A stretch of 64,000 nucleotides of DNA from Candidatus Thalassarchaeaceae archaeon. GTDB taxonomy: Archaea > Thermoplasmatota > Poseidoniia > Poseidoniales > Thalassarchaeaceae. Numbering within the stretch: position 1 is the first letter of the stretch; each line of letters starts with the position of its first letter. The stretch is taken from assembly GCA_030749075.1 (NCBI GenBank), contig JASMKR010000031.1, positions 70,089 through 134,088 of the forward strand. Direction: 5' to 3'. A program made the translations under genes and the position numbers. The notes beneath the pieces were generated by a model, which was not told where the DNA came from, searched no databases, and saw nothing but the letters and a program-made list of their open reading frames with translations. Positions 2,827 through 50,756 of the stretch are shown here, piece after piece.

Positions 2827-4833
2827 TTATGACATCTCGAAGAAGCGCTCTACGTGCTTAGAGGTTCTGGCCGGGCTGGTGGTTTGACGAGTGTGCATAG
2901 ACTGGGGCAAGCAATCTCTGACTCTCTTCTCAAGCAATCGCTTCTCCAATAGTACAATGATAGCCTTATCTTCGGCCTTACGAATCGGCCTACCTAATGC
3001 CTGCATGATACTGTTTACCGCTGGTTGCAGACTCGCGTATTTCCATGCCTTCGACCTCCCGAAGCGTCCAGTGTAGTACTCTAGCAAGGCGTCCTGCCTA
3101 GCGCTTGGAGGAGATAGGGGAAGGCCTACGCAAACCACAGCATCAAGGATATTTCCTGCGTAGTCAACACCCTCTGAGAATTTGCCACTTAGTACTCCAA
3201 ATAATACTGCTTCAACCCCCATAGATTTCCACTCATGGAGCCTTCCTACCGTACCATCGACAGATCGCTTGGACATCCCCCTCTCCTCTAGTAATCTCCT
3301 CTTACCGAACGTGTAGTCAATATCTGCATAAATCCTATCCAACATCGCATAACTAGGAGCGAAAACCGCTACGTTTCCATCCGTCTTCTCCAGTACTGAT
3401 CTAATGTGGTCGCGAATGGAGGCGTAGCTTGCCTCCCTCTCTGTGAACTTGCTAGTTACGTCTCTTGCAATAAATACCGGCCTGTTATCGGGCGGGAATC
3501 CAGAGTAGTACTCCTTGCACATCGCTTTATCATCGGGGATCCCTAGGATGTCTGAGTACATGGTTGGAGGAAATAAGGTTCCAGACATTAGAATAGAGCC
3601 CGCGCACTGCTTGAATATCGGCCCACCGACAACACCCGGATCAAGCAGATGACTGGTCACCCGCGGGACTTCCAGAACGTTATCGAAAATCAGAGACAGG
3701 GCAGGACTATTCCTGTACTTGATGCAGATATCCAGAAACTCTGCCAATCTGATGCAGTCGTTTTGCTCGTCCTCATCTATCGAATCATCCTCATCAACCA
3801 CAACCGAAAGCAGCCTACTGTTCATTCTCATTATTCTGGCAATCCCATCTTCAGGATCATTTTCTTCTATGCCCTCTATCGCTCTCGCAATGACTTCCAG
3901 GAACTCGTCAGTATCTATCCTCAGGTCGCCAACCTTGGATGATTCATTCTCAGCGGTCTTCCCCGAGAACCACCTGCTCAATGCGGAGTCTTCCTCCAAT
4001 GCCTTGACCTGCTTCTCCAGGAGTAATACATCACTATGGCTTTTGGAAACAGGCAAGTCAAGTTTCTTTGCCGATTCCTCAAGATTTTCCTTGTGCGCAT
4101 TGACATCAATTCTTGCCCTATTGAACACTTTTGTCGTAACAATTCTTTCCAAGCCGAGTCTGATTCTGTCTGGTAGGTTGTGTGCTTCGTCTACGACGAG
4201 AATTGCGTTATCCAAATCCACACGCATCACGGTAAGCGATTTTTCCCGGACCGCCTCTACGAAGACGTGGTTGTAGTCGCAGACTAGAATGTCCGCTTTC
4301 CTGACTGCGGATCTTGCTGTCGCCCAAGCACAAATTCCCCTAGCACTCCCCTCCCTGATCACCCGGTCAACATGCCTCGGCTCTTCTAGGATAAAATCCT
4401 CCAAGTCTGCCCTCCTGCCTTTCCTAGCAGATCCAACAATGCCCTCTTCGCAGGTGCATTCACCGGTCGATTTGTTTACGTTATCGCACATTCCTTCCCT
4501 GCCGATGATGTCCACTAGGCTAACTTTCGGGATTTCAGTTGGGAGTTTAGAGTTGATTTGACGCACCGTCTCTACAACAATCCTGTGCTGAGATTGCCTG
4601 CCTGTCATAAACAGGATTTTCGGTTTCTCTGGGTTGGCGTTGTAGAAGTTCGCGACTTCAAATGCCGATGCAAGTGCCGCAGCGGTCTTGCCGATTCCCG
4701 TTGGAGCCGCAGCCAATAGGAAATCCCTTTCTCTGAGTGCAATTATTCCATCAGAGACCATCTTTTTCTGCGAATCCCTAATCTTTTCATGGGCGAAGAA
4801 TAGTCGTGCCTCGACTTCTCTCCCAACTGACAT
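2827..4833 (-). CDS. xpd: Rad3/XPD-family 5'-3' DNA helicase (FeS-cluster SF2 helicase)
   Basis: Walker A is AAAPTGIGKT and the DEAH box is VVDEAHNL. A four-Cys cluster (C..C.C....C around CDNVNKSTGECTCEEG) is typical of the XPD FeS domain. C-terminal helicase motifs are present. Confidence 0.8.
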   Translation of the reverse strand: MSVGREVEARLFFAHEKIRDSQKKMVSDGIIALRERDFLLAAAPTGIGKTAAALASAFEVANFYNANPEKPKILFMTGRQSQHRIVVETVRQINSKLPTEIPKVSLVDIIGREGMCDNVNKSTGECTCEEGIVGSARKGRRADLEDFILEEPRHVDRVIREGSARGICAWATARSAVRKADILVCDYNHVFVEAVREKSLTVMRVDLDNAILVVDEAHNLPDRIRLGLERIVTTKVFNRARIDVNAHKENLEESAKKLDLPVSKSHSDVLLLEKQVKALEEDSALSRWFSGKTAENESSKVGDLRIDTDEFLEVIARAIEGIEENDPEDGIARIMRMNSRLLSVVVDEDDSIDEDEQNDCIRLAEFLDICIKYRNSPALSLIFDNVLEVPRVTSHLLDPGVVGGPIFKQCAGSILMSGTLFPPTMYSDILGIPDDKAMCKEYYSGFPPDNRPVFIARDVTSKFTEREASYASIRDHIRSVLEKTDGNVAVFAPSYAMLDRIYADIDYTFGKRRLLEERGMSKRSVDGTVGRLHEWKSMGVEAVLFGVLSGKFSEGVDYAGNILDAVVCVGLPLSPPSARQDALLEYYTGRFGRSKAWKYASLQPAVNSIMQALGRPIRKAEDKAIIVLLEKRLLEKRVRDCLPQSMHTRQTTSPARTSKHVERFFEMS

Positions 4834-4873: not shown

Positions 4874-7816
4874 TCATCTAACTACGATGGCCTCGGAGTC
4901 CCTACTGTCGAGGACCACCTTCAGTGGCGAGTCTAGCCTCACGTGGCGTAGACCACCCTCTTCCGTCAAGGCCTCAATGTCGTCGAGCCATTCCCAATCG
5001 ACCAAATCGTCCTCGAGGATGGTCAGGTAGCCTATGTTGAAGGTCACGATGTTCTGGAAGAAGTGGGTGCCCTGAGACGGTTCCACGCGAATGTCCGCCA
5101 TAGGAACCTCGACGATGGTCTTGGCACCCATTATCTGGTTCCATTGTACGGGAATGCCCAACGATGGGTCAGATGACCCCCAACGCCCGGGTCCAATCAG
5201 AATATATGGCCGGTCCTCCGATCGGAGCCCGGCATCGATCTCCTCGATCACAGGTATGATATCCATCGTCTTCATCCTGTTCATACGCTTTGGGTGTACG
5301 TAAACGACATCTACAATGTGGTCGATGATGCCATTTCCCAGTGACTTGCTGCTGATGCAGACGGCCTTGTCCTTATTGACCTCGTCCAGGTCGATGTCGA
5401 TGTCAACTGATTCGTCCATCAGTGGTCTGACTTGTAAGATGGCGAACTTGCGGTTTCCATCTTCGGGATTGACTGTAAGGGCGAACTCCAGCTCTACGGG
5501 GCTGCCCAAGAAGTTCTCACACGTCGCGAGGACATGGTGCAGAATGCGTGGGAGGGGAAAACGCTGGTGCTTGAGGATTGGCGCGAAGGTGACTAGCCTA
5601 GGCCCTCCCTCGACCTTTATCGAGTCCACGATCCTGTCGTCAGCAGTGATGTAAGTGGAACCGACAAGAGAGAGTCTGCCATCCTCCTCTGCAGAGGATA
5701 ATCCTAGATGTAGCAGGTTCTCCTCCTCAGCAGCGAGCACCGGCCCCGATTCCCGAACCATCGGGATGGCGAAGAAGCGACTCTGTGAGGAACTGATGAT
5801 TGACTGGGTGCTGTAGAATTGGTGAACCCTCTTGGGCTGGCCCGGACTGAATCTCAGGCACTTTCCCCCTGAGGAGACCTGTCTGCCAAGACCGATGCAA
5901 ACGGCAGCCAGTCCATCCTCCATCTTGAGTGGTTCGACCGGGTAGTGATTTCGACTCCTTGCCGCCCCGGAGATATCGGGGTAGAAGCGACCCGAAACCT
6001 CCCTCCCGACAACCTCCTGAATCACAACTGCCATCTTCTCATCCTCGATGGTGTTGGCAGTTGCTGTAACGTATTTCTTGGCGCCCCTGTGGAATATCGA
6101 TGCGTATACCAGTTTTATCGCTTCAAGCAGCCGCCTGAGTCTGACCTCAAGGTCAGGGTGATCATTCGCGAGCATGTATGTTGCGTACACCCCGGCAAAG
6201 GGTTGGTGACTGGAATCCTCGAGCAAGCTCGATGATCGTACGGCCAACGGCCACTCTGAATTCTCCAGCATGGCCCTAATCTCACGGACCTCATCATCTC
6301 CGAATTGGCTACTCAGGAATGCACGGTCCACTTCATCATCGGATTCGTCATCATGAACGAATCTAACCAGTTCGTTCCTAGACACGAAGTCGTCGAAGAC
6401 CTCCGTAGCGATGACTACGGAGTTCGGGACAATGAAATCGATGTCTGGGAAGCCATCACCTAACCCCAACTCCCCCATCTTTGTGTAGAAGAACGCGAGA
6501 CCCCGCCCCTTTCCCCCTAAGCTCCCTCGCCCAATTCTCTGGAAACCAACCTCGTCTATGCCAGATTCGTGATCCCTGATCGTCCGCCTCCTAACATCGG
6601 AAATATGTGCCAGAACCGACTCAGCGATGTACTTCCTCACGCCTTCTAAGTCCTCAAAATCCTCCAAAGTCATCGGTCTGAGGGAGGCTGCGAGCGAGAA
6701 TTCGGTTCGGGCACGGAGCCAGTGGGAGAATTCGTTCCTCGTCGCATGGAACTCTATGGTCTCAATCGGTACCCCCTCCAACTCGACGACGAACTCCTCT
6801 AGATTCGACGCTCTGCCAATCTCCGTCTCATCAGGCATCCTGAAAATGAAATCGCCGAACCCCATCTCCTCAAGCATGAACTCCTCGATTCTCTGGTACA
6901 ATGCCGGATCTTCCTTGTGGAGGAAGCGGACCCCAAGTCCCTCGGCCGCTTCCTTCAGCTCGAGGTTCTTTGATTGCAGTAGTATTGGGAGGTACCTGTG
7001 ACCGCTTTGGGCATAACGAACCAATTCCAATCCCGCTGTGTCCCTCTCACCGTTTTGGTGGGGAAATCTACCATCGGTGAAGACTCCGATGATATTTCTT
7101 GAGTACTTGTCAATTATTTCCTTGGCCGAAGCCATGTCCGAGGCGAGTAGAATCTTCGCTCGGGCCCTCAGCCTCAGGAGCTTCTCATGGAGGTTACCAC
7201 CCTCTCCCATGAGTTTCGTTGTCTGCCGCACCAGTTGAGTGTAGAGGAGTGGTAGGTAAGCAGAGTAGAACCTCCTGCTGTCCTCGACGAGTAGAATGAC
7301 CTGCACGTCACCGTCCCTTACGTCGTTCTCTACGTTCCTTTCATCCTCAATCAACTTGCAAATCGAAAGTAGGATTCTGCTATCGCCCCCCCAAACAAAT
7401 ATCCTGTCAATACCATCGCCGGTTCTGAGAGTAGCCAGCTCCCTCGTGTTCTGACTCAGCATCACCACTGGCACATCCTCTTGATGGACTTTAACCAGCC
7501 TGGCAAAGGCGTAGGGATCCATGGTACCTACATTTGTCATAGTGATTACTAGATCGAAGTTGCGACTAGCGATGAGGCTCAGGGCATCATCGGCATCAGG
7601 GCTATGGATGATTCTAGGGGCCTGGGACAGGTTTAGCACCGAGTACTCCTCTTGCAGGATTTCTGCGAGATAGCCGGATTCTTCTAGGAGGTAGCGGTCG
7701 AACTGACTAGCCACGAGGAGGACCTCTGTGACTTTGAAGGGGGTCAGCCTCTCGAACCGATTCCAGTCCGTGACGCCCCCGTCCATAGGATCAGAGTCCG
7801 GTTGGCGGCATTGCAT
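4874..7816 (-). CDS. Two N-terminal CheY-like receiver domains (first degenerate) fused to a PEP-synthase/PPDK-type ATP-binding domain and a degenerate PEP-utilizing swivel domain
   Basis: The second receiver has VILLVEDS ... GVFTDGRFP ... LPILLQSK. The motifs GGKGRGLAFF (nt ~6497-6514), VPNSVVIATEVFDDF, VRSSSLLEDSSHQPFAGVYATY and LQVRPL match the PPDK_N/PEP synthase nucleotide-binding domain. The C-terminal GPGRWGSSDPSLGIPV (nt ~5165-5200) resembles the mobile domain GGRTSHAAI..GIP, but the His is replaced. Confidence 0.65.
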   Translation of the reverse strand: MQCRQPDSDPMDGGVTDWNRFERLTPFKVTEVLLVASQFDRYLLEESGYLAEILQEEYSVLNLSQAPRIIHSPDADDALSLIASRNFDLVITMTNVGTMDPYAFARLVKVHQEDVPVVMLSQNTRELATLRTGDGIDRIFVWGGDSRILLSICKLIEDERNVENDVRDGDVQVILLVEDSRRFYSAYLPLLYTQLVRQTTKLMGEGGNLHEKLLRLRARAKILLASDMASAKEIIDKYSRNIIGVFTDGRFPHQNGERDTAGLELVRYAQSGHRYLPILLQSKNLELKEAAEGLGVRFLHKEDPALYQRIEEFMLEEMGFGDFIFRMPDETEIGRASNLEEFVVELEGVPIETIEFHATRNEFSHWLRARTEFSLAASLRPMTLEDFEDLEGVRKYIAESVLAHISDVRRRTIRDHESGIDEVGFQRIGRGSLGGKGRGLAFFYTKMGELGLGDGFPDIDFIVPNSVVIATEVFDDFVSRNELVRFVHDDESDDEVDRAFLSSQFGDDEVREIRAMLENSEWPLAVRSSSLLEDSSHQPFAGVYATYMLANDHPDLEVRLRRLLEAIKLVYASIFHRGAKKYVTATANTIEDEKMAVVIQEVVGREVSGRFYPDISGAARSRNHYPVEPLKMEDGLAAVCIGLGRQVSSGGKCLRFSPGQPKRVHQFYSTQSIISSSQSRFFAIPMVRESGPVLAAEEENLLHLGLSSAEEDGRLSLVGSTYITADDRIVDSIKVEGGPRLVTFAPILKHQRFPLPRILHHVLATCENFLGSPVELEFALTVNPEDGNRKFAILQVRPLMDESVDIDIDLDEVNKDKAVCISSKSLGNGIIDHIVDVVYVHPKRMNRMKTMDIIPVIEEIDAGLRSEDRPYILIGPGRWGSSDPSLGIPVQWNQIMGAKTIVEVPMADIRVEPSQGTHFFQNIVTFNIGYLTILEDDLVDWEWLDDIEALTEEGGLRHVRLDSPLKVVLDSRDSEAIVVR

Positions 7817-8011
7817 TTCAGAGGACCGGAGGGTGTGCCCCGCACGAGCGTGCGGGACGGTGTGTGTTGAGTGTGCTCAGTCTTGCTCTCGCCTTCGTAG
7901 CACCCTTGGTGCCTGCCTTGCGTCATATCCGACTGCATTAGAGAGCCTTGCACGATTCCTGATTCCCCTAAGTCCCTTAGAAAACCCCCTGATTCGGCTT
8001 GATTTGTGGTT

Positions 8012-8036
8012 GGGGGGGCGGTTTTGCCGCCCCCCC
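8012..8036. repeat. Perfect GC-rich hairpin (10-bp stem GGGGGGGCGG / CCGCCCCCCC, 5-nt loop TTTTG), followed on the + strand by a GT-rich run
   Basis: Read directly from the sequence. It lies in the 260-nt spacer between the 3' end of the RHH gene and the 5' end of the receiver-PPS gene. Confidence 0.5.
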
Positions 8037-8077
8037 GTGTTGTTTGTGTGCATCCCATCCTCGCTCAATCTCTCACC

Positions 8078-8443
8078 TCAAGCGTTCGAATCGTCGTCAA
8101 ATCGAGAACGCAGATCATCCATGCGTCTCGCGAGAAGTTCCTCTACCGTGGCCCCCTGGATCATCTCCTTGCGAATGTACTCGCGAGCAGATTGTCGGAG
8201 CACGACATCTGCGGACTCGCCCACGAATTTGCAGAAGTCACTGAGTCTGATGGTTAGATCGGGACCAAGATCGACCTCGACCCTGCCTCCCTGTCCAGGC
8301 AACGGAGATGCCAGAAGCCTGCGCACTGCCTCTCTGATGACATCCGACCTATTCCTCATCCCATCGAATCCCACGAGCCTGTCCAGTTCCATCAGGTGAT
8401 CCTCGGGAATCCTCAGCGAGACCATGGGACTGACGCCGGCCAC
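8078..8443 (-). CDS. Ribbon-helix-helix (CopG/NikR-N-like) DNA-binding protein
   Basis: The N-terminal VSLRIPEDHLMELDRLVGFDGMRNRSDVIREAVRRLL is a classic RHH beta-strand plus two helices. The product is 121 aa, with a possible alternative start at Met7. It is divergent from the HD phosphohydrolase gene. Confidence 0.6.
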   Translation of the reverse strand: MAGVSPMVSLRIPEDHLMELDRLVGFDGMRNRSDVIREAVRRLLASPLPGQGGRVEVDLGPDLTIRLSDFCKFVGESADVVLRQSAREYIRKEMIQGATVEELLARRMDDLRSRFDDDSNA

Positions 8444-8487
8444 TTTGAACTACTCCTGAGTCTCGAGACGAGCATGGGCACTTAATT

Positions 8488-8516
8488 GTATTGCATTTGA
8501 AATGCAATTGCAATAC
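8488..8516. promoter_or_regulatory. Nested palindromes: GTATTGCA TTTGAAATGCAAT TGCAATAC. Outer 8-bp arms are 8488-8495 and 8509-8516, the inner TTGCATTT-G-AAATGCAA palindrome is 8491-8507, and ATTGCAAT is 8507-8514. Putative operator in a divergent promoter.
   Basis: Read directly from the sequence. It sits in the AT-richer 165-180-nt divergent intergenic region between the RHH regulator gene and the HD gene. Dyad symmetry is typical of RHH-dimer operators. Confidence 0.4.
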
Positions 8517-8607
8517 GATAGATAGTACACACAACTAGAACCTCCAGATACTACCCTCACAGAGCGATTCAAGGCACATGGGTCCCTGCAACGGCCACGG
8601 TGCTCTG

Positions 8608-9922
8608 ATGAAGGTCATCAACGATGCTATCCACGGTCAGTTCAAGCTCGATGGCGTTACCCAGGACCTCCTCGGCACACCCGAGCTAAACAAACTCAGT
8701 CACATCAAACAATTAGGGCTGGCCCACTTGGTTTTCCCCGGAGCGCATCACACTAGATTCGAGCATTCCCTAGGTGCTTCGCACGTTGCGGGTTTGATGG
8801 CGGAGTCTCTTGATCTGGGCGCACGGGATAGGGCGACCGTCGAGGTCGCAGCAATGCTCCATGACGTTGGTCATGGCCCGTATTCACACACGCTGGAGCA
8901 CATTCTTCAAGAGCGTGGGGGGATGGATCACATGTCGGTTACTGAGGGTATTATTCTAGGAGATTATGATGTGCTGTTGGAAGGTGAGGAAACCTCGGTC
9001 GAGAACAGGGAAGCAATTCCTGACATCCTGACTCGACATGGGCTCGATCCTGTTCAAATCGCATCTCTGATTCGTGGTCCAGACGCATCTGGGACTGAGA
9101 GGTCACTGCTCAATTGGACGGAGGGCAGGGAAGATTTCTCCGGTAGCGATAATACTCTGGCTCACCTAATCCACGGCCCCGTGGACTGCGACCAGTTGGA
9201 CTACCTGCTTAGGGACTCGCACTTCACAGGCGTGAAGCATGGAGTTGTGGACCATCACAGGCTCATCGAATGCCTTCAGAGCCAAGGTGGTGACATAGTC
9301 GTCGAGGAGGGTGGTCTTTCTTCGCTGGAGGGCATGCTAGCCGCTAGGGGACTGATGTACAGCTCCGTATACTTCCACAGGGTTACGAGAGTGACAGAGG
9401 TCATGTTGTCAAGGGCTGTCGAGAGAAGCAGTGAGGCCTTGCCCGACCCTATTGACCTACAGCGTAGGGTCGATGCAGAGATTTGGGGTGCACTAAATGA
9501 CGCGGGGGGGTTCTCTAGGGACATTATCAGGAGACTGAAGTACCGCAAGTTGCTCAAAATCTGCTTGAGCCGTCGCAGGGAAGATCTGACCGATGATCAA
9601 GCCGGTCGATTGGTGAAACTGGCCAATGACTCCAATTCGAGGCAGGCTATGGAAGACGAAATCGCCCATCGAGCAGGGGTCGAGCCGGGCTATGTGGCAA
9701 TCGACGTCCCTAGTGTGAAGCTCCTCATGGCCGAACCTAGGATGGCCCAAGTAGACATCAGGGTCGTCGGAAACGATGGGATGGCCCGGTGGCTGCGTGA
9801 ATTGACCCCCATGGCGGAAGCCCTCAGGAGGCGGCAGGTCAGCCAAGAAGCAGTATACGTGATGACGCTCCCCGGAACAGAGAAGAAAGTAGCCGAAATT
9901 GCAGAGCGCCACCTGTTCTCCT

Positions 9923-9924
<2 letters not shown>
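8608..9924 (+). CDS. HD-domain metal-dependent phosphohydrolase (dGTPase/SAMHD1-like superfamily)
   Basis: MKVINDAIHG..., H...RFEHSLG and LHDVGHGPYSH form the HD motif. There is a further D...D...LRD region. The 8578 ATG is in frame, but 8608 gives the canonical MK.I.D.IHG N-terminus. Confidence 0.7.
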
Positions 9925-11407
<1,483 letters not shown>

Positions 11408-13123
11408 TCACTCTGGAGAACGGCCTACCTCATCAATCTCGTTCATCCTATTGACGGCGACGTACCCCGCAATCGCGATTCCAATGACCAGTGCCAGCAT
11501 GATAGGTATGATGTAATGCAACCCCTCCTCTTCCTCAGCCTCGCCCCAGGTGATAGCACTGCTAACCATCTCCCCCCCTCCAAAGGCCAGATCGTCGACC
11601 AGTTGCGTAGGAGTAAGGACACGGCAAGTCAGACTGTCCTCACCGGTAGTGGACGTCCTCCATGTGAAGTGGATGGTCTCCTCGCCCCCAGCCCCAATCA
11701 TCGCATTGGGCCATGTAGGGGACAACTCCGCTGCGACTCCAGTGCTGGTGACATTGCAATCTATGGCAAGGATAGCCGCTGCGGTGCCCGTGTTCGCAAT
11801 CACCGCCTCGACTGCGACAGAGTCCCCCATAACTGCAGCATCGGTTGAATTCCCGTCATCACCCACTGCGATGATGGACACCCACTCTACGTTCGGCGTT
11901 ACTTGGTCGACTACGACATCTGTCTGCCATCCAAGGGAGAATTGACCTCCTCCGTAGTCCCCGATTCCTGATCCATCAGGATTCCACGCTGTTCTGTAGT
12001 CAGTGATGGTCACAACCGCCTGTTCGGTCCAAATGGGGCTATCCTCCCAGGTGTTGTCATCGGACCATGCGATCTCTACGACCCTCTCGCCTCCCCCCTT
12101 GATGTACGAAACTCCGTTCAAGTCGCTGAAGTTGCTGTATGATGGGGCGTTGTGCATGCCCGTGATCTCGTAGGCGACGTAAATGGCTTCGAAACTGAGG
12201 CGCTGTCCTGCTAGCCGCCTCTCCCACTTGTCAGTCAAACCACCAGAACCCCCCACATCCTCGCCCCATTCAATTGAGCTGTAGGCCCTTGCCCTGACAT
12301 CGTGGTCGTCAGTGCTATTGGTGAAGTTGGTCGTGCCTCCAAGAAAGATGGCCGCCCTATCGCTGGAAAGTATGACTGGACCTACCCTATTCATCACCGA
12401 ATCATTGATTGTAACTTCCCCGGTAGTTGATATCTGGCCGCCCTCAATCAAGGAATCTACAGCCCTCATTTGCCCCTCAATTGATACTGTAAACCCCGAT
12501 TCCCCATATACCATCATGTTCCGATGGAATAGGTCAGCGGCAGAGTAACTGATTTGATTCAAGTTCGAAGCGCTCAAGGTAATTTCACTTAGTGAAACCG
12601 GGTAGCAGAATGGGCCAACAAATTCAACCCATACATCAGTCGCCCCAGGTCCAAAAGTCAGGGTATACTCGGTGCCACTCATGGCTTCAGAATCGTTTCC
12701 AAAATAAGCTGTAACTCCATCTAGGCTTGACGAACCAATTGGCCTGAATGTGGCCTCAAATCTTTTGTTGGCGTCATCCCAAGGTATCATCACAGCAGAG
12801 CGATTGCTCTCATCGCAGTAACCATAGCCAACTAGGCCCGAAGGTGGTTCGGTTGCTATCATTTCCGAGTTTTCAACACGTAGAATTGATCCTTCTTCGA
12901 CGAAAATATTCACGCCTCTTTCCAGCGTTACCTCGGTGTTCGAGAAGGTCAGGGATCCGCCGTTGATGACCCTGATATTCTGTGACAGGGTCATGTCCTG
13001 CTCCCAAGTCATGTCAGATTCGATAATGATGTCCTCGCCGCTCTCAGCTGTTGCTCCAGATGGCAGAACCATCCCAGTTGCGATTAGTGTCATGCAAACC
13101 AATAGGGCGCTTCTGCCATTCAT
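11408..13123 (-). CDS. Secreted cell-surface protein with signal peptide and C-terminal TM anchor
   Basis: The Met25 start gives a classic signal peptide, MNGRSALLVCMTLIATGMVLPSGATA. The C-terminus is EEEGLHYIIPIMLALVIGIAIAGYVAV plus a charged tail. There are many N-x-S/T sequons. The track ORF extends to 13195. Confidence 0.55.
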   Translation of the reverse strand: MNGRSALLVCMTLIATGMVLPSGATAESGEDIIIESDMTWEQDMTLSQNIRVINGGSLTFSNTEVTLERGVNIFVEEGSILRVENSEMIATEPPSGLVGYGYCDESNRSAVMIPWDDANKRFEATFRPIGSSSLDGVTAYFGNDSEAMSGTEYTLTFGPGATDVWVEFVGPFCYPVSLSEITLSASNLNQISYSAADLFHRNMMVYGESGFTVSIEGQMRAVDSLIEGGQISTTGEVTINDSVMNRVGPVILSSDRAAIFLGGTTNFTNSTDDHDVRARAYSSIEWGEDVGGSGGLTDKWERRLAGQRLSFEAIYVAYEITGMHNAPSYSNFSDLNGVSYIKGGGERVVEIAWSDDNTWEDSPIWTEQAVVTITDYRTAWNPDGSGIGDYGGGQFSLGWQTDVVVDQVTPNVEWVSIIAVGDDGNSTDAAVMGDSVAVEAVIANTGTAAAILAIDCNVTSTGVAAELSPTWPNAMIGAGGEETIHFTWRTSTTGEDSLTCRVLTPTQLVDDLAFGGGEMVSSAITWGEAEEEEGLHYIIPIMLALVIGIAIAGYVAVNRMNEIDEVGRSPE

Positions 13124-48654: not shown

Positions 48655-50664
48655 CTACTCTATCCTAAGGGTGCTCCCGCATTCTGAGCAGTCCAACCTC
48701 AGGGGCCTCACGTTGGACTCAACCTTGTTCTTGGTCCCACATGAAGGGCATCTAACCCTGCCGGCTTTGGTGGGACCACCACCTGCCTTCTCCATCGACT
48801 CATCGGCGGGGGAGATGAGGGTAACGGGGAACACTAGGAGAACGCTAGAGGCGACCACGCCTAGGACGATTTGCATCGGGAGGCCGAACCAATAAATCAC
48901 TAGAGTCAGAACGCCGAGGACGCTGACCATAATCATGCTCGGAACCCTCGTTCTGCGTTTCGTCAGTGCCAAAGCGATTCCAATCGCCAAGCATAGGGCG
49001 AATACGGCGATCATCGCCGAAACCAGGGGGCTGTGAACAAGGGAACCCGGGGCGGCGAAGTCGATTCTGAAGTCAGTCTCAGAATCTATGTCCGATTCCT
49101 CGATTATTAGGGTCTCCATTACAATCCACCTCCGGTGTGAGTACGAGATATCGTCAGTCTCGGAATACACTGCACCAAGACCTGAAAGCATCCCAGTGCT
49201 AATCTCAAAGTCGAGATCCACCTTTGCCCAGTAGTCGTATCCCCCCGGGCGGATGAAGTCCTCGATTAGCCTCTGCCTCTGACTTTCATCAACGTCATAG
49301 GCCGCACTAATGGTGATGGAAATTACCTCGGAGTTGAATGCTGCCGATCCTCCCAAGTCAATCACTATGCCCATTGGGCCGAAATCGATTGGGTTCACGC
49401 CGAAAATCGCCTCAGGATCTAGGAATAGTCCATTGGATAGAAATGACCTCAAGTCTGATTTAGATCCCCTCAGATGGTCCTGCAGAGCCATAATTTCGGA
49501 ATCGTCGACTCTTCCGTTTTGCTTGTCCGAGCTGCTCACCAAGTCAGAGTAAGAATTCAAGTTCCTCCACCAACTGCTGGAGCCTAGACTCTTATTTCCA
49601 ATGTTGTCAAGCCCCCATCTCATCCACTGGGACATCGACCCATCGAAACTAATCGAAGTAGCCCTATCGATCGAGTCTCCGTCGTATTCGCATGAGATGC
49701 TGACTTCCAGCTCGGAGCCACCGATTCGCGACGGCTCTTCTGCTGGATACCAGCCAGTGCCCCCAGAGTCCACCCCTGCTGTAATCTGATGATTTTTATC
49801 AGCCTCGATTCTCAGGGCAGATTGTGGAGAAAGGTAGAAGTCGGCTCTCAAAGACCCGCCCACAAAGTCATCAGGCACCTCCCAGACGAAGGTAACCTCA
49901 ACCCCATCTTCCAGAACTGTAGTGATGGGGCTTTCACTCACCTCCGTATTTTGAATCGAGAATCCTCCGCTCGAACCGGACCACATCTTGTAACCGAATC
50001 CCGAAGTCAGCTTAATTGGGAAGAACGCAAGGTTGCCCTTCACGCTCGCCTCCCTCATCTCGACGTTGACAAGTGGGAATGACATGGACAAGGAAGCATC
50101 GTTTTGTGTCGATCCCCAGAGAAACAGAATCCCCGATTCACTTCCAGGATTGGAGAAGACCAGGCCTTGCACGGATAGCGAAATCTCGATTTCTTCGCCC
50201 TCGGAAATCTCCCCATCACCGACTTCCACAGAGACTTGCAGTTCTCCTGAGTTGGTAAGGTATACTGCGGGAATCTGGGAAGAGCTCTCGTACGTGCTTC
50301 CTCCCACCTTGATTAGAACGGTGGCGTTGGCAGTAACGCCGGTTGCATCGACAACTTCGTAGGGGATGCTGAAAATCCATGTCCCTGCTGAGTAATCCCC
50401 ATCCGCGCCCCAGATGACGCTCCATGCCCCTATGTTCACCTCTCCCCAAATCGACGGGGTGACGAGGAATGACTTCTCTTCGTCTAAGTCGGAGTCGAAG
50501 GGGGTCAACTCTCCTTCATCCGATTCTCCCATCAGATATAGCTTGAAGTCCTGAGTCTCACAGCATGAATTCACCTCGTCGGATTGCACAGACATTGGGG
50601 ATAGGACAATTATGACCAACAGTGCAACTACCGCTCCCGTACCACGTGGGGAATTGCCACTCAT
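48655..50664 (-). CDS. Surface protein (669 aa): signal peptide, large extracellular beta-rich domain, C-terminal TM helices, cytoplasmic CxxC..CxxC zinc ribbon
   Basis: The N-terminus is MSGNSPRGTGAVVALLVIIVLSPMSVQS. C-terminal helices are LVSAMIAVFALCLAIGIALAL and MIMVSVLGVLTLVIYWF...VLGVVASSVLLVF. The C-terminal motif is RCPSCGTKNK....CSECGSTL. Confidence 0.55.
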   Translation of the reverse strand: MSGNSPRGTGAVVALLVIIVLSPMSVQSDEVNSCCETQDFKLYLMGESDEGELTPFDSDLDEEKSFLVTPSIWGEVNIGAWSVIWGADGDYSAGTWIFSIPYEVVDATGVTANATVLIKVGGSTYESSSQIPAVYLTNSGELQVSVEVGDGEISEGEEIEISLSVQGLVFSNPGSESGILFLWGSTQNDASLSMSFPLVNVEMREASVKGNLAFFPIKLTSGFGYKMWSGSSGGFSIQNTEVSESPITTVLEDGVEVTFVWEVPDDFVGGSLRADFYLSPQSALRIEADKNHQITAGVDSGGTGWYPAEEPSRIGGSELEVSISCEYDGDSIDRATSISFDGSMSQWMRWGLDNIGNKSLGSSSWWRNLNSYSDLVSSSDKQNGRVDDSEIMALQDHLRGSKSDLRSFLSNGLFLDPEAIFGVNPIDFGPMGIVIDLGGSAAFNSEVISITISAAYDVDESQRQRLIEDFIRPGGYDYWAKVDLDFEISTGMLSGLGAVYSETDDISYSHRRWIVMETLIIEESDIDSETDFRIDFAAPGSLVHSPLVSAMIAVFALCLAIGIALALTKRRTRVPSMIMVSVLGVLTLVIYWFGLPMQIVLGVVASSVLLVFPVTLISPADESMEKAGGGPTKAGRVRCPSCGTKNKVESNVRPLRLDCSECGSTLRIE

Positions 50665-50756
50665 CGTATGCTGATTGGCACCATGCCCTTGAATGCGACG
50701 CCCATAGGAACCTCACGCGCGCGATTCACTGGGCAACGCAGTTGGCCCGCACCGAA

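Follow-up and report, generated by a model that had tools for sequence, protein, structure and literature searches.

A ribbon-helix-helix (RHH) regulator gene and a gene for an HD-domain protein of the SAMHD1 superfamily diverge from a short intergenic spacer in the DNA examined here, a 64-kb stretch from a Marine Group II archaeon (Thalassarchaeaceae) that represents ~3–4% of one genome and is called the window below. Both gene identities, and the divergent arrangement, had been proposed in a first-pass annotation and hold up well. Pfam assigns RHH_1 to one product and HD together with HD_assoc_2 to the other, the latter also aligning with SAMHD1 and EF1143, and the open reading frames (ORFs) run from 8078 to 8443 on the minus strand (121 aa) and from 8578 to 9924 on the plus strand (448 aa). 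The features of the locus on which the argument depends are as follows.

8078–8443, minus strand: RHH regulator gene, 121 aa, GTG start, protein MAGVSPMVSLRIPEDHL, with an N-terminal RHH_1 domain
8453–8457, minus strand: Shine-Dalgarno-like AGGAG, 9 nt upstream of the RHH GTG
8480–8486, minus strand: putative TATA-like element of the RHH promoter, ATTAAGT (ATTATAT in most relatives), ~40 nt upstream of the RHH start codon
8487–8495, no strand assigned: predicted operator box 1, TGTATTGCA, nearest the RHH TATA-like element and at the presumed position of the B recognition element (BRE); defined by weight matrix and information content
8498–8506, no strand assigned: predicted operator box 2, TGAAATGCA, 11 bp from box 1
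8509–8517, no strand assigned: predicted operator box 3, TGCAATACG, 11 bp from box 2; most relatives read TGAAATACA
8564–8574, plus strand: GCGATTCAAGG, probable BRE/TATA-like core element of the HD gene, suggested by conservation of a TTSAA motif
8599–8602, plus strand: Shine-Dalgarno-like GGTG, 5 nt upstream of the HD ATG
8608–9924, plus strand: HD-domain deoxynucleoside triphosphate (dNTP) triphosphohydrolase-type gene of the SAMHD1/EF1143/Aq_1910 clade, 438 aa; alternative start ATG 8578 (448 aa)

The RHH start was placed at GTG 8443 because an N-terminal MxGxSP extension is conserved in RHH homologues, the internal Met is absent from some of them, and a GGAGG-type Shine-Dalgarno sequence, kept at this position in orthologous spacers, stands just upstream. 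Translation of HD probably begins at ATG 8608, since homologues mostly have 438 aa with MKVINDAIHG at the N-terminus, and other species do not retain the upstream ATG in frame; GGTG, GAGG or AGGG precedes this start in orthologous spacers. The spacer between the RHH GTG and the HD ATG is therefore 164 nt, a revision of the ~170 nt given in the first-pass annotation, whose description of it as AT-richer stands (47% GC against 53.7% for the window, falling to 29% in the core at 8480–8530).

Homologues of both proteins originate from Marine Group II archaea (Candidatus Thalassarchaeaceae/Thalassarchaeum, Poseidoniales). A scan for HD orthologues, using one genome per species, yielded 80 loci of Marine Group IIb (MGIIb) in which the HD protein is 69–88% identical, and a divergent RHH orthologue (56–93% identical) lies beside it in 79 of them. 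The eightieth locus (L055) extends just 57 nt upstream of HD, so that the pair occurs wherever an MGIIb locus offers sufficient sequence, and a defect in the RHH gene of another (L074) is only apparent, corresponding to a run of N in the sequence. One contig recorded under the name "Chloroflexota bacterium" (L044, PBAZ01000027.1) carries a full MGIIb RHH-operator-HD locus with an HD identity of 73% and is probably mis-binned.

The spacer contains a palindrome, GTATTGCATTTGAAATGCAATTGCAATAC, lying exactly at 8488–8516, which had been interpreted as an RHH-type operator built from three overlapping dyads. A repeat search recovered a perfect 9-nt dyad (8490–8498/8500–8508) and an 87% 15-nt dyad (8485–8499/8505–8519), and TTGCA-N7-TGCAA occurs once in 64 kb against an expectation of 0.04. 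Alignment of orthologous spacers resolved a different conserved unit: a block at 8483–8518 consisting of T-A-A followed by three repeats of TG.A...CA separated by 2-nt A/T linkers, that is, three 9-bp TGnAnnnCA boxes with centres 11 bp apart, spanning 8487–8517. Each box is a TG/CA pseudo-dyad, and box 1 approximates boxes 2 and 3 read on the opposite strand. Among the 58 distinct variants used for box and dyad counts, all 15 phased TG.A...CA positions are intact in 43, whereas a perfect outer 8-nt dyad is limited to one variant, found only in the window and in L002, its closest relative. Of the two inner dyads, one is perfect in eight variants and the other in five. The T-A-A at 8483–8485 is invariant in the 73 distinct orthologous blocks from which information content was computed. 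The element itself was thus correctly located and is kept in 79 of the 80 loci, while the trio of dyads does not survive as its conserved unit. The nested palindrome is thus a by-product: the boxes are pseudo-dyads, box 1 approximates the reverse complement of the other two, and in this lineage the C that box 3 has at its third position completes the outer dyad.

A 36-nt weight matrix derived from the orthologous spacers scores 56 bits at this site and exceeds 30 bits in 79 of the 80 loci. Scans with it covered the window and 682 kb of local loci. Further copies of the motif, a search for which the first-pass annotation had suggested, are lacking from the window by both measures, TTGCA-N7-TGCAA being found once and the matrix giving a single site; the sole other match above the 8-bit threshold is the same site on the opposite strand. 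The 682 kb of loci returned two weak two-box matches only, and single boxes in the window are as frequent as chance predicts (10 versus 6.5 ± 3.3), which gives no sign of a regulon there.

The placement of the boxes is strongly asymmetric with respect to the two genes. The distance from the array to the internal ATG of the RHH gene is 54–59 nt in all loci, a range of 6 nt, whereas that to the HD ATG varies from 92 to 146 nt. Towards the RHH gene, ATTATAT or ATTAAGT begins 1–2 nt beyond the proximal box, and the Shine-Dalgarno sequence and start codon come ~25 nt later. Because the proximal box adjoins the TATA-like element, it would cover the BRE position. We consider it probable that 8483–8518 is the operator of the RHH gene's own, negatively autoregulated promoter and that HD is a syntenic neighbour of housekeeping type.

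Distant members of the RHH family allow the array to be separated from HD. Where labelled, these proteins are assigned to Poseidoniales, "Euryarchaeota" or Thermoplasmatota. Their identity to P0242, the sequence that heads the query profile, is 26–39%; the window protein is 45% identical to P0242 and 26–39% identical to most of these distant members. No HD gene was found within 4 kb of RHH in ten distant loci, where the divergent neighbour is instead a 148-aa protein followed by glutamate dehydrogenase (GDH), GDH alone, or unrelated genes. Nonetheless, nine of the ten carry three to four phased TGTAAT(A)CA-type boxes adjoining a TATA sequence (ATATATAC, TTATATAC or TCATATAC) that keeps the same place relative to the RHH ATG, ~37 nt before it. 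In the tenth (L088), the array is degenerate and recognizable by eye only. In eight distant loci, the array is unique within the 8.4-kb locus, and in L090 it is of the MGIIb type. Box sequence also shifts with protein clade, from TGTAAT(A)CA in distant members to TGyATTTCA/TGCAATACA in MGIIb. Because distant RHH promoters keep their arrays without HD nearby, the predicted operator follows the RHH gene and not HD. As a separate observation, the position of HD is held in L081–L087 and L090 by an acidic protein of 148–171 aa (e.g. 3355–3801, minus strand, in L084) that has only a weak TerB-like match (E = 9e-4); it lies between RHH and GDH in L081–L087 and is not followed by GDH in L090.

These results bear directly on the proposal that a dedicated RHH protein tightly represses HD. 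In its general form, an RHH oligomer on a shared bidirectional operator would repress both divergent promoters, with HD held tightly for dNTP homeostasis or a latent antiviral role. The boxes do sit between both genes, the gap to the promoter-like motif of HD shrinks to 17 nt in some species, and the divergent pair is kept in 79 of 79 informative MGIIb loci despite a changing left flank, in which only 33 of the 80 loci contain a PPDK-like gene. This adjacency is nevertheless weak evidence, because RHH-HD-GDH belongs to a wider syntenic block, with GDH in 79 of the 80 MGIIb loci and an XPD-like helicase downstream throughout. The distance to HD is variable and unphased against the fixed distance to RHH: the gap between the array and the HD motif spans 17–68 nt across loci and shows no helical phasing (resultant length 0.13–0.24 over 19 distinct distances). 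Furthermore, no box occurs at or near the HD promoter-like motif, and boxes persist on RHH promoters that face the 148-aa protein, GDH or other genes. The defence variant of this explanation additionally fails the family tests described below, and HD does not reside in a variable region. Repression of both genes from a shared operator is consequently regarded as doubtful, and dedicated tight control of HD is not borne out.

HD appears to possess a promoter of its own. The TTSAA motif within GCGATTCAAGG is found 37–45 nt from the HD ATG in 78 of 79 loci, and TTSAARG stands 29–40 nt upstream of other genes in the window, for example those starting at 50664 (minus strand) and 33876 (minus strand). 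Since TTSAARG precedes several other window genes, GCGATTCAAGG is read as the local type of BRE/TATA element and not as a regulator site. It was also considered as a second operator and rejected, as it has no TG...CA box and TTSAARG is a generic promoter element. Copies of TTSAARG occur at 50693 (minus strand), 33909 (minus strand), 45416 (minus strand), 8568 (plus strand) and elsewhere, often preceded by GCGA or GCA; the motif may represent this organism's standard TATA/BRE-like element, in which case leaders would be short and carry Shine-Dalgarno sequences. HD, with a promoter-like element and a Shine-Dalgarno sequence to itself, is best seen as a syntenic neighbour on which the predicted operator has at most a secondary influence, and we regard any such influence of the RHH operator on HD as unlikely.

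The autoregulatory interpretation can be formulated as a mechanism. With 2-nt A/T linkers, the box centres are 11 bp apart and therefore face the same side of the helix. RHH dimers would insert their N-terminal β-ribbon, which includes the invariant S and R of the VSLRI segment, into successive major grooves, and the helical C-terminal region would couple neighbouring dimers. The resulting oligomer would occlude the BRE/TATA region in competition with TFB and TBP, leading to negative autoregulation of a short operon comprising the RHH gene and a conserved 58-aa ORF. As it stands, this mechanism is the ordinary one for RHH autoregulators. Arc and Mnt of phage P22, CopG of pMV158, MetJ, and omega of pSM19035 are mostly autoregulated repressors whose operator lies beside the gene. 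Their operators are composed of short sub-sites approximately one helical turn apart, are bound cooperatively by dimers on one face of the DNA, and overlap the core promoter. The window resembles these systems in pairing a small RHH protein with adjacent phased sub-sites, here predicted from sequence. It differs in its archaeal promoter (TATA/BRE in place of −35/−10), in its arrangement of three 9-bp boxes at 11-bp spacing (four in distant clades), and in the extra helical C-terminal region of ~70 aa carried by the protein.

Because every box lies upstream of the RHH TATA-like element and none over the start site, an upstream activating site also has to be weighed. Here, RHH or a different factor would bring TBP/TFB to weak TATA-like elements, giving positive autoregulation and possibly activation of HD too. 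The TATA-like elements of both promoters are non-canonical (ATTAAGT and ATTCAAGG), which is the usual setting of archaeal activators. Counting against activation, the proximal box ends 1–2 nt from the TATA-like element and overlaps the BRE position, the closest characterised relatives by sequence (the aCcr1 proteins) are repressors, and most characterised RHH autoregulators repress. Activation is thus judged improbable.

A further alternative assigns the AT-rich block to a different regulator, such as one of the Lrp/AsnC type, or simply to the core promoter elements of two divergent genes. Promoters alone predict an AT-rich conserved sequence between divergent genes, Lrp/AsnC-type proteins bind regularly spaced AT-rich palindromes, and a glutamate dehydrogenase gene is always nearby. 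Yet RHH is the only transcription-factor gene linked to the locus, the block tracks RHH across clades and not GDH or HD, TG/CA invariants at a strict 11-bp spacing are unlike TATA/BRE, and box sequence co-varies with RHH clade. Of the explanations considered, this one appears the most remote.

Several points weigh against negative autoregulation from an RHH-specific operator. The TATA element, the BRE and the transcription start sites are putative assignments drawn from position and conservation, and TTSAARG at promoters gives a weak statistic (13 matches versus 8.7 ± 2.2 at random positions). Boxes upstream of TATA can also be used by archaeal activators. In all 79 MGIIb species the gene diverging from RHH is HD, which leaves room for some co-regulation of RHH and HD. 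Finally, the scans covered the window and local loci, and further operator targets may lie elsewhere in the genome. We nevertheless favour an RHH autoregulator over the alternatives, and as such the locus supplies a testable pairing of cis-element and transcription factor for Marine Group II, which is abundant in the ocean, has no cultured member and is almost uncharacterised in its gene regulation.

The RHH domain was identified by Pfam RHH_1 (PF01402) at 25.4 bits against a cut-off of 20.5, with residues 8–45 aligned to profile positions 2–38 of 39. Ten positions are invariant in 150 family members: R11, G25, G28, R30, R32, S33, D34, V35, R37, and G60. The C-terminal region of ~70 aa is helical, and a Pfam search with this half returned no match, nor was a family or fold match found for it. 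An AlphaFold2 (AF2) model of the monomer (predicted local distance difference test [pLDDT] 81.8) contains helices at 14–23, 32–45, 60–74, 78–95, and 100–120, with an extended segment preceding the first two. The β-strand of an RHH protein takes shape only in the dimer, and a monomer model cannot show it. Superposition on NikR covered 40 residues with a root-mean-square deviation (rmsd) of 1.5 Å and a probability of 0.94, although all Foldseek E-values are ≥0.38. The N-terminal 40 residues superpose on the RHH domains of NikR, Arc, and CopG with rmsd values of 1.5–3.9 Å, and ParD was also matched by Foldseek. The phased boxes beside the gene are consistent with an RHH dimer that would bind repeated sub-sites through a two-stranded β-ribbon.

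A tandem arrangement, in which the C-terminal half would be a second RHH domain and the chain a single-chain pseudo-dimer, was considered and rejected. Comparison of the two halves by hhalign gave a probability of 5.9% with helix 2 alone in register; a first AF2 model had a pLDDT of 59.5, and the second (81.8) shows helices without an intramolecular ribbon. The match that Foldseek reports to a permuted single-chain Arc lacks significance (E = 1.1, rmsd 17 Å).

When 1.84 billion representative proteins were searched with a profile, 88 RHH-family clusters were retrieved at E ≤ 1e-3, among them ~20 full-length relatives of 118–130 aa, and within these representatives the family is restricted to marine Thermoplasmatota. 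The NikR model matches the RHH part only (17.2 bits against a cut-off of 83), and Pfam finds no counterpart of the nickel-binding ACT-like C-terminal domain of NikR. Nor does the locus resemble a type II toxin-antitoxin system, where a toxin gene stands next to the antitoxin gene and usually overlaps it, the small ORF, the PPDK-like protein, HD, and GDH all being without a toxin family match.

Among named models, aCcr1_fam (E = 6.9e-7) and CdrS (E = 2.8e-6) score best for the RHH domain, both below cut-off. For aCcr1 (NCBIfam NF053762), the score is 29 bits against 60, and for CdrS (NCBIfam NF058555), 27.2 bits against 100. Proteins of both families are single-domain and ~58–61 aa long (~58 aa for aCcr1), whereas the window RHH protein has 121 aa and neither cdvA nor ftsZ2 as a neighbour; no tubulin/FtsZ gene was seen at window positions 6000–12500 or, for the ten distant loci whose genes have Pfam calls, at distances up to 4 kb. 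CdrS, a haloarchaeal cell-division RHH regulator, shares a transcript with ftsZ2 (PMC7439475). CdrL, the "long" RHH protein of haloarchaea, contains a zinc-ribbon domain and occurs only in Halobacteria (PMC7439475), features for which it was rejected as a match for the window protein. Because its scores fall far under the cut-offs and it is twice as long, the window RHH protein would act like aCcr1/CdrS while standing outside both families.

The resemblance to aCcr1 extends to the DNA. This Sulfolobales cell-cycle repressor acts from a promoter or 5′ untranslated region (5′UTR) position (PMC9976878). Its box, (A/T/G)GTAATACN, is a 9-bp near-palindrome that occurs, frequently twice, in promoters and 5′UTRs (PMC9976878). 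Agreement with the aCcr1 box extends to nine of nine positions for the distant-clade box TGTAATACA and to eight of nine for the reverse complement of window box 1, TGCAATACA. Together with the domain similarity, this hints that such RHH regulators are more widespread in archaea than named families suggest. A bolder extension holds that the RHH protein is the Poseidoniales counterpart of the aCcr1/CdrS cell-cycle regulators: a lineage-wide autoregulated master switch with an aCcr1-like box, wired to DNA-metabolism genes that accompany it (the XPD-like helicase order-wide, the SAMHD1-like dNTPase in MGIIb) and including the 58-aa protein with its hairpin. We rate this as speculative and rather improbable; if true, the switch would time dNTP supply and DNA repair/replication in globally abundant uncultured archaea.

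The HD protein was placed by several comparisons. Pfam reports HD at 39.9 bits and HD_assoc_2 at 135.2 bits, and matches to the PDB include Aquifex Aq_1910 (2hek, 2e-42), a Bacteroides protein (2q14, 3.6e-36), and E. faecalis EF1143 (2o6i, 1.7e-33). Its similarity to SAMHD1, EF1143, and Aq_1910 (2HEK) rests on the HD and HD_assoc_2 domains and on direct alignment, which for SAMHD1 spans residues 7–284 at ~1e-28 (1.8e-28). Unlike SAMHD1, the HD protein has no SAM domain, and it is encoded by a single conserved chromosomal gene in an archaeal family. Residues H47, H48, H53, H85, D86, H89, D193, D195, D198, and D203 are invariant in 14 orthologues and reside in the segments AHHTRFEHS, LHDVGH, and VDCDQLDYLLRD; some of these His and Asp residues may correspond to the metal ligands of the solved enzymes. 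HD is accordingly predicted to be a SAMHD1/EF1143-type dNTP triphosphohydrolase and a conserved core gene of Thalassarchaeaceae, for which housekeeping control of the dNTP pool is a sensible inference.

The antiviral role entertained in the first-pass annotation finds no support. HD scores 12.5 bits against a cut-off of 400 for the NCBIfam antiphage_dGTPase model (NF041026). The PADLOC dGTPase model gives a local match only (30 bits over 56 residues, 57–112), and a PADLOC scan of RHH and HD, the only two proteins scanned, returned no family-level match. The published defensive dGTPases failed to align directly to SAMHD1 and are enriched beside defence systems (10.1101/2021.04.26.441389). In contrast, the HD protein aligns directly to SAMHD1 and shares with defensive dGTPases (the Sp-dGTPase family) only the region of the HD metal-binding motif, residues 57–112. 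A patchy distribution was not seen either: every Thalassarchaeaceae species sampled has HD in the same setting at no less than 69% identity, with RHH-HD-GDH fixed in every informative locus of the 80 species. Of the two outcomes that the annotation had named as telling against it, a housekeeping-like HD protein was thus observed, while loss of the element upstream of orthologues was not, 79 of 80 loci retaining it. A tempting but unsupported reading of a SAMHD1-like gene as a defence system is thereby removed.

Downstream of RHH, two further features were delineated.

7877–8053, minus strand: conserved unannotated small ORF that comes next after the RHH stop codon and encodes a very basic 58-aa product, MHTNNTGGRQNRPPNHKSSRIRGFSKGLRGIRNRARLSNAVGYDARQAPRVLRRREQD; Shine-Dalgarno sequence GAGG at 8059–8062
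8011–8037, minus strand: G/C-rich hairpin GGGGGGGCGG-CAAAA-CCGCCCCCCC within codons 6–14 of the small ORF, kept in all MGIIb loci

The small ORF, which is probably co-transcribed with RHH, is open over 52–77 aa with the motif RA+LSNAVGY..APR in 59 of 77 anchorable MGIIb loci and in the window. Its C-terminal half varies only at third codon positions, and searches of Pfam and NCBIfam gave no match. Distant loci have an ORF of 59–60 aa in the same place. Within the hairpin, compensatory double changes occur at three of nine pairs and also alter the encoded amino acids, which argues that the structure and not the peptide is under selection there. The hairpin could be an attenuator or terminator between RHH and the downstream genes. 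It was flagged by a sigma-70/intrinsic-terminator scan that is otherwise uninformative for an archaeon, and Rfam reported no family at the gathering threshold in the window and chance-level matches only in 7700–8700. A non-coding octamer, GGTGAGAG, lies right after the RHH stop codon (8070–8077, minus strand) and is kept from MGIIb to L082, L088, and L089; the most distant octamer-bearing RHH proteins are only ~30% identical, and a GGAGGGGATGGGA-like sequence follows it. The octamer may serve translational coupling or be an RNA element.

An XPD-like helicase (DEAD_2/Helicase_C_2) is encoded downstream of RHH in every clade examined, at 2827–4833 (minus strand) in the window and at ~4700–6780 in L081–L090. 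In the ten distant loci, a ~140-aa protein accompanies the helicase downstream of RHH, and a small ORF intervenes between RHH and the helicase in most. Across the clades, the ~140-aa protein follows the helicase in the majority of loci. The association of RHH with the XPD-like helicase is more deeply conserved than that with HD.

In 33 of the 80 MGIIb loci, a PPDK-like gene separates the RHH operon from the helicase; in the window it occupies 4874–7816 (minus strand) and encodes 980 aa. Its product contains an ATP-binding PPDK_N domain, a sub-threshold receiver domain (24.4 bits against a cut-off of 30.2), and a weak match to DUF5752. The sequence TGAAATGCAAT at 7812–7822, identical to box 2 plus its linker, overlaps the PPDK-like start codon; it is taken to be coincidental because it is not kept in other loci with the PPDK-like gene and single boxes occur at chance frequency. 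Upstream of the same gene, at ~7831–7860, a conserved hairpin CGTCCCGCAC...GTGCGGGGCA is followed by CTGAA and the ATG.

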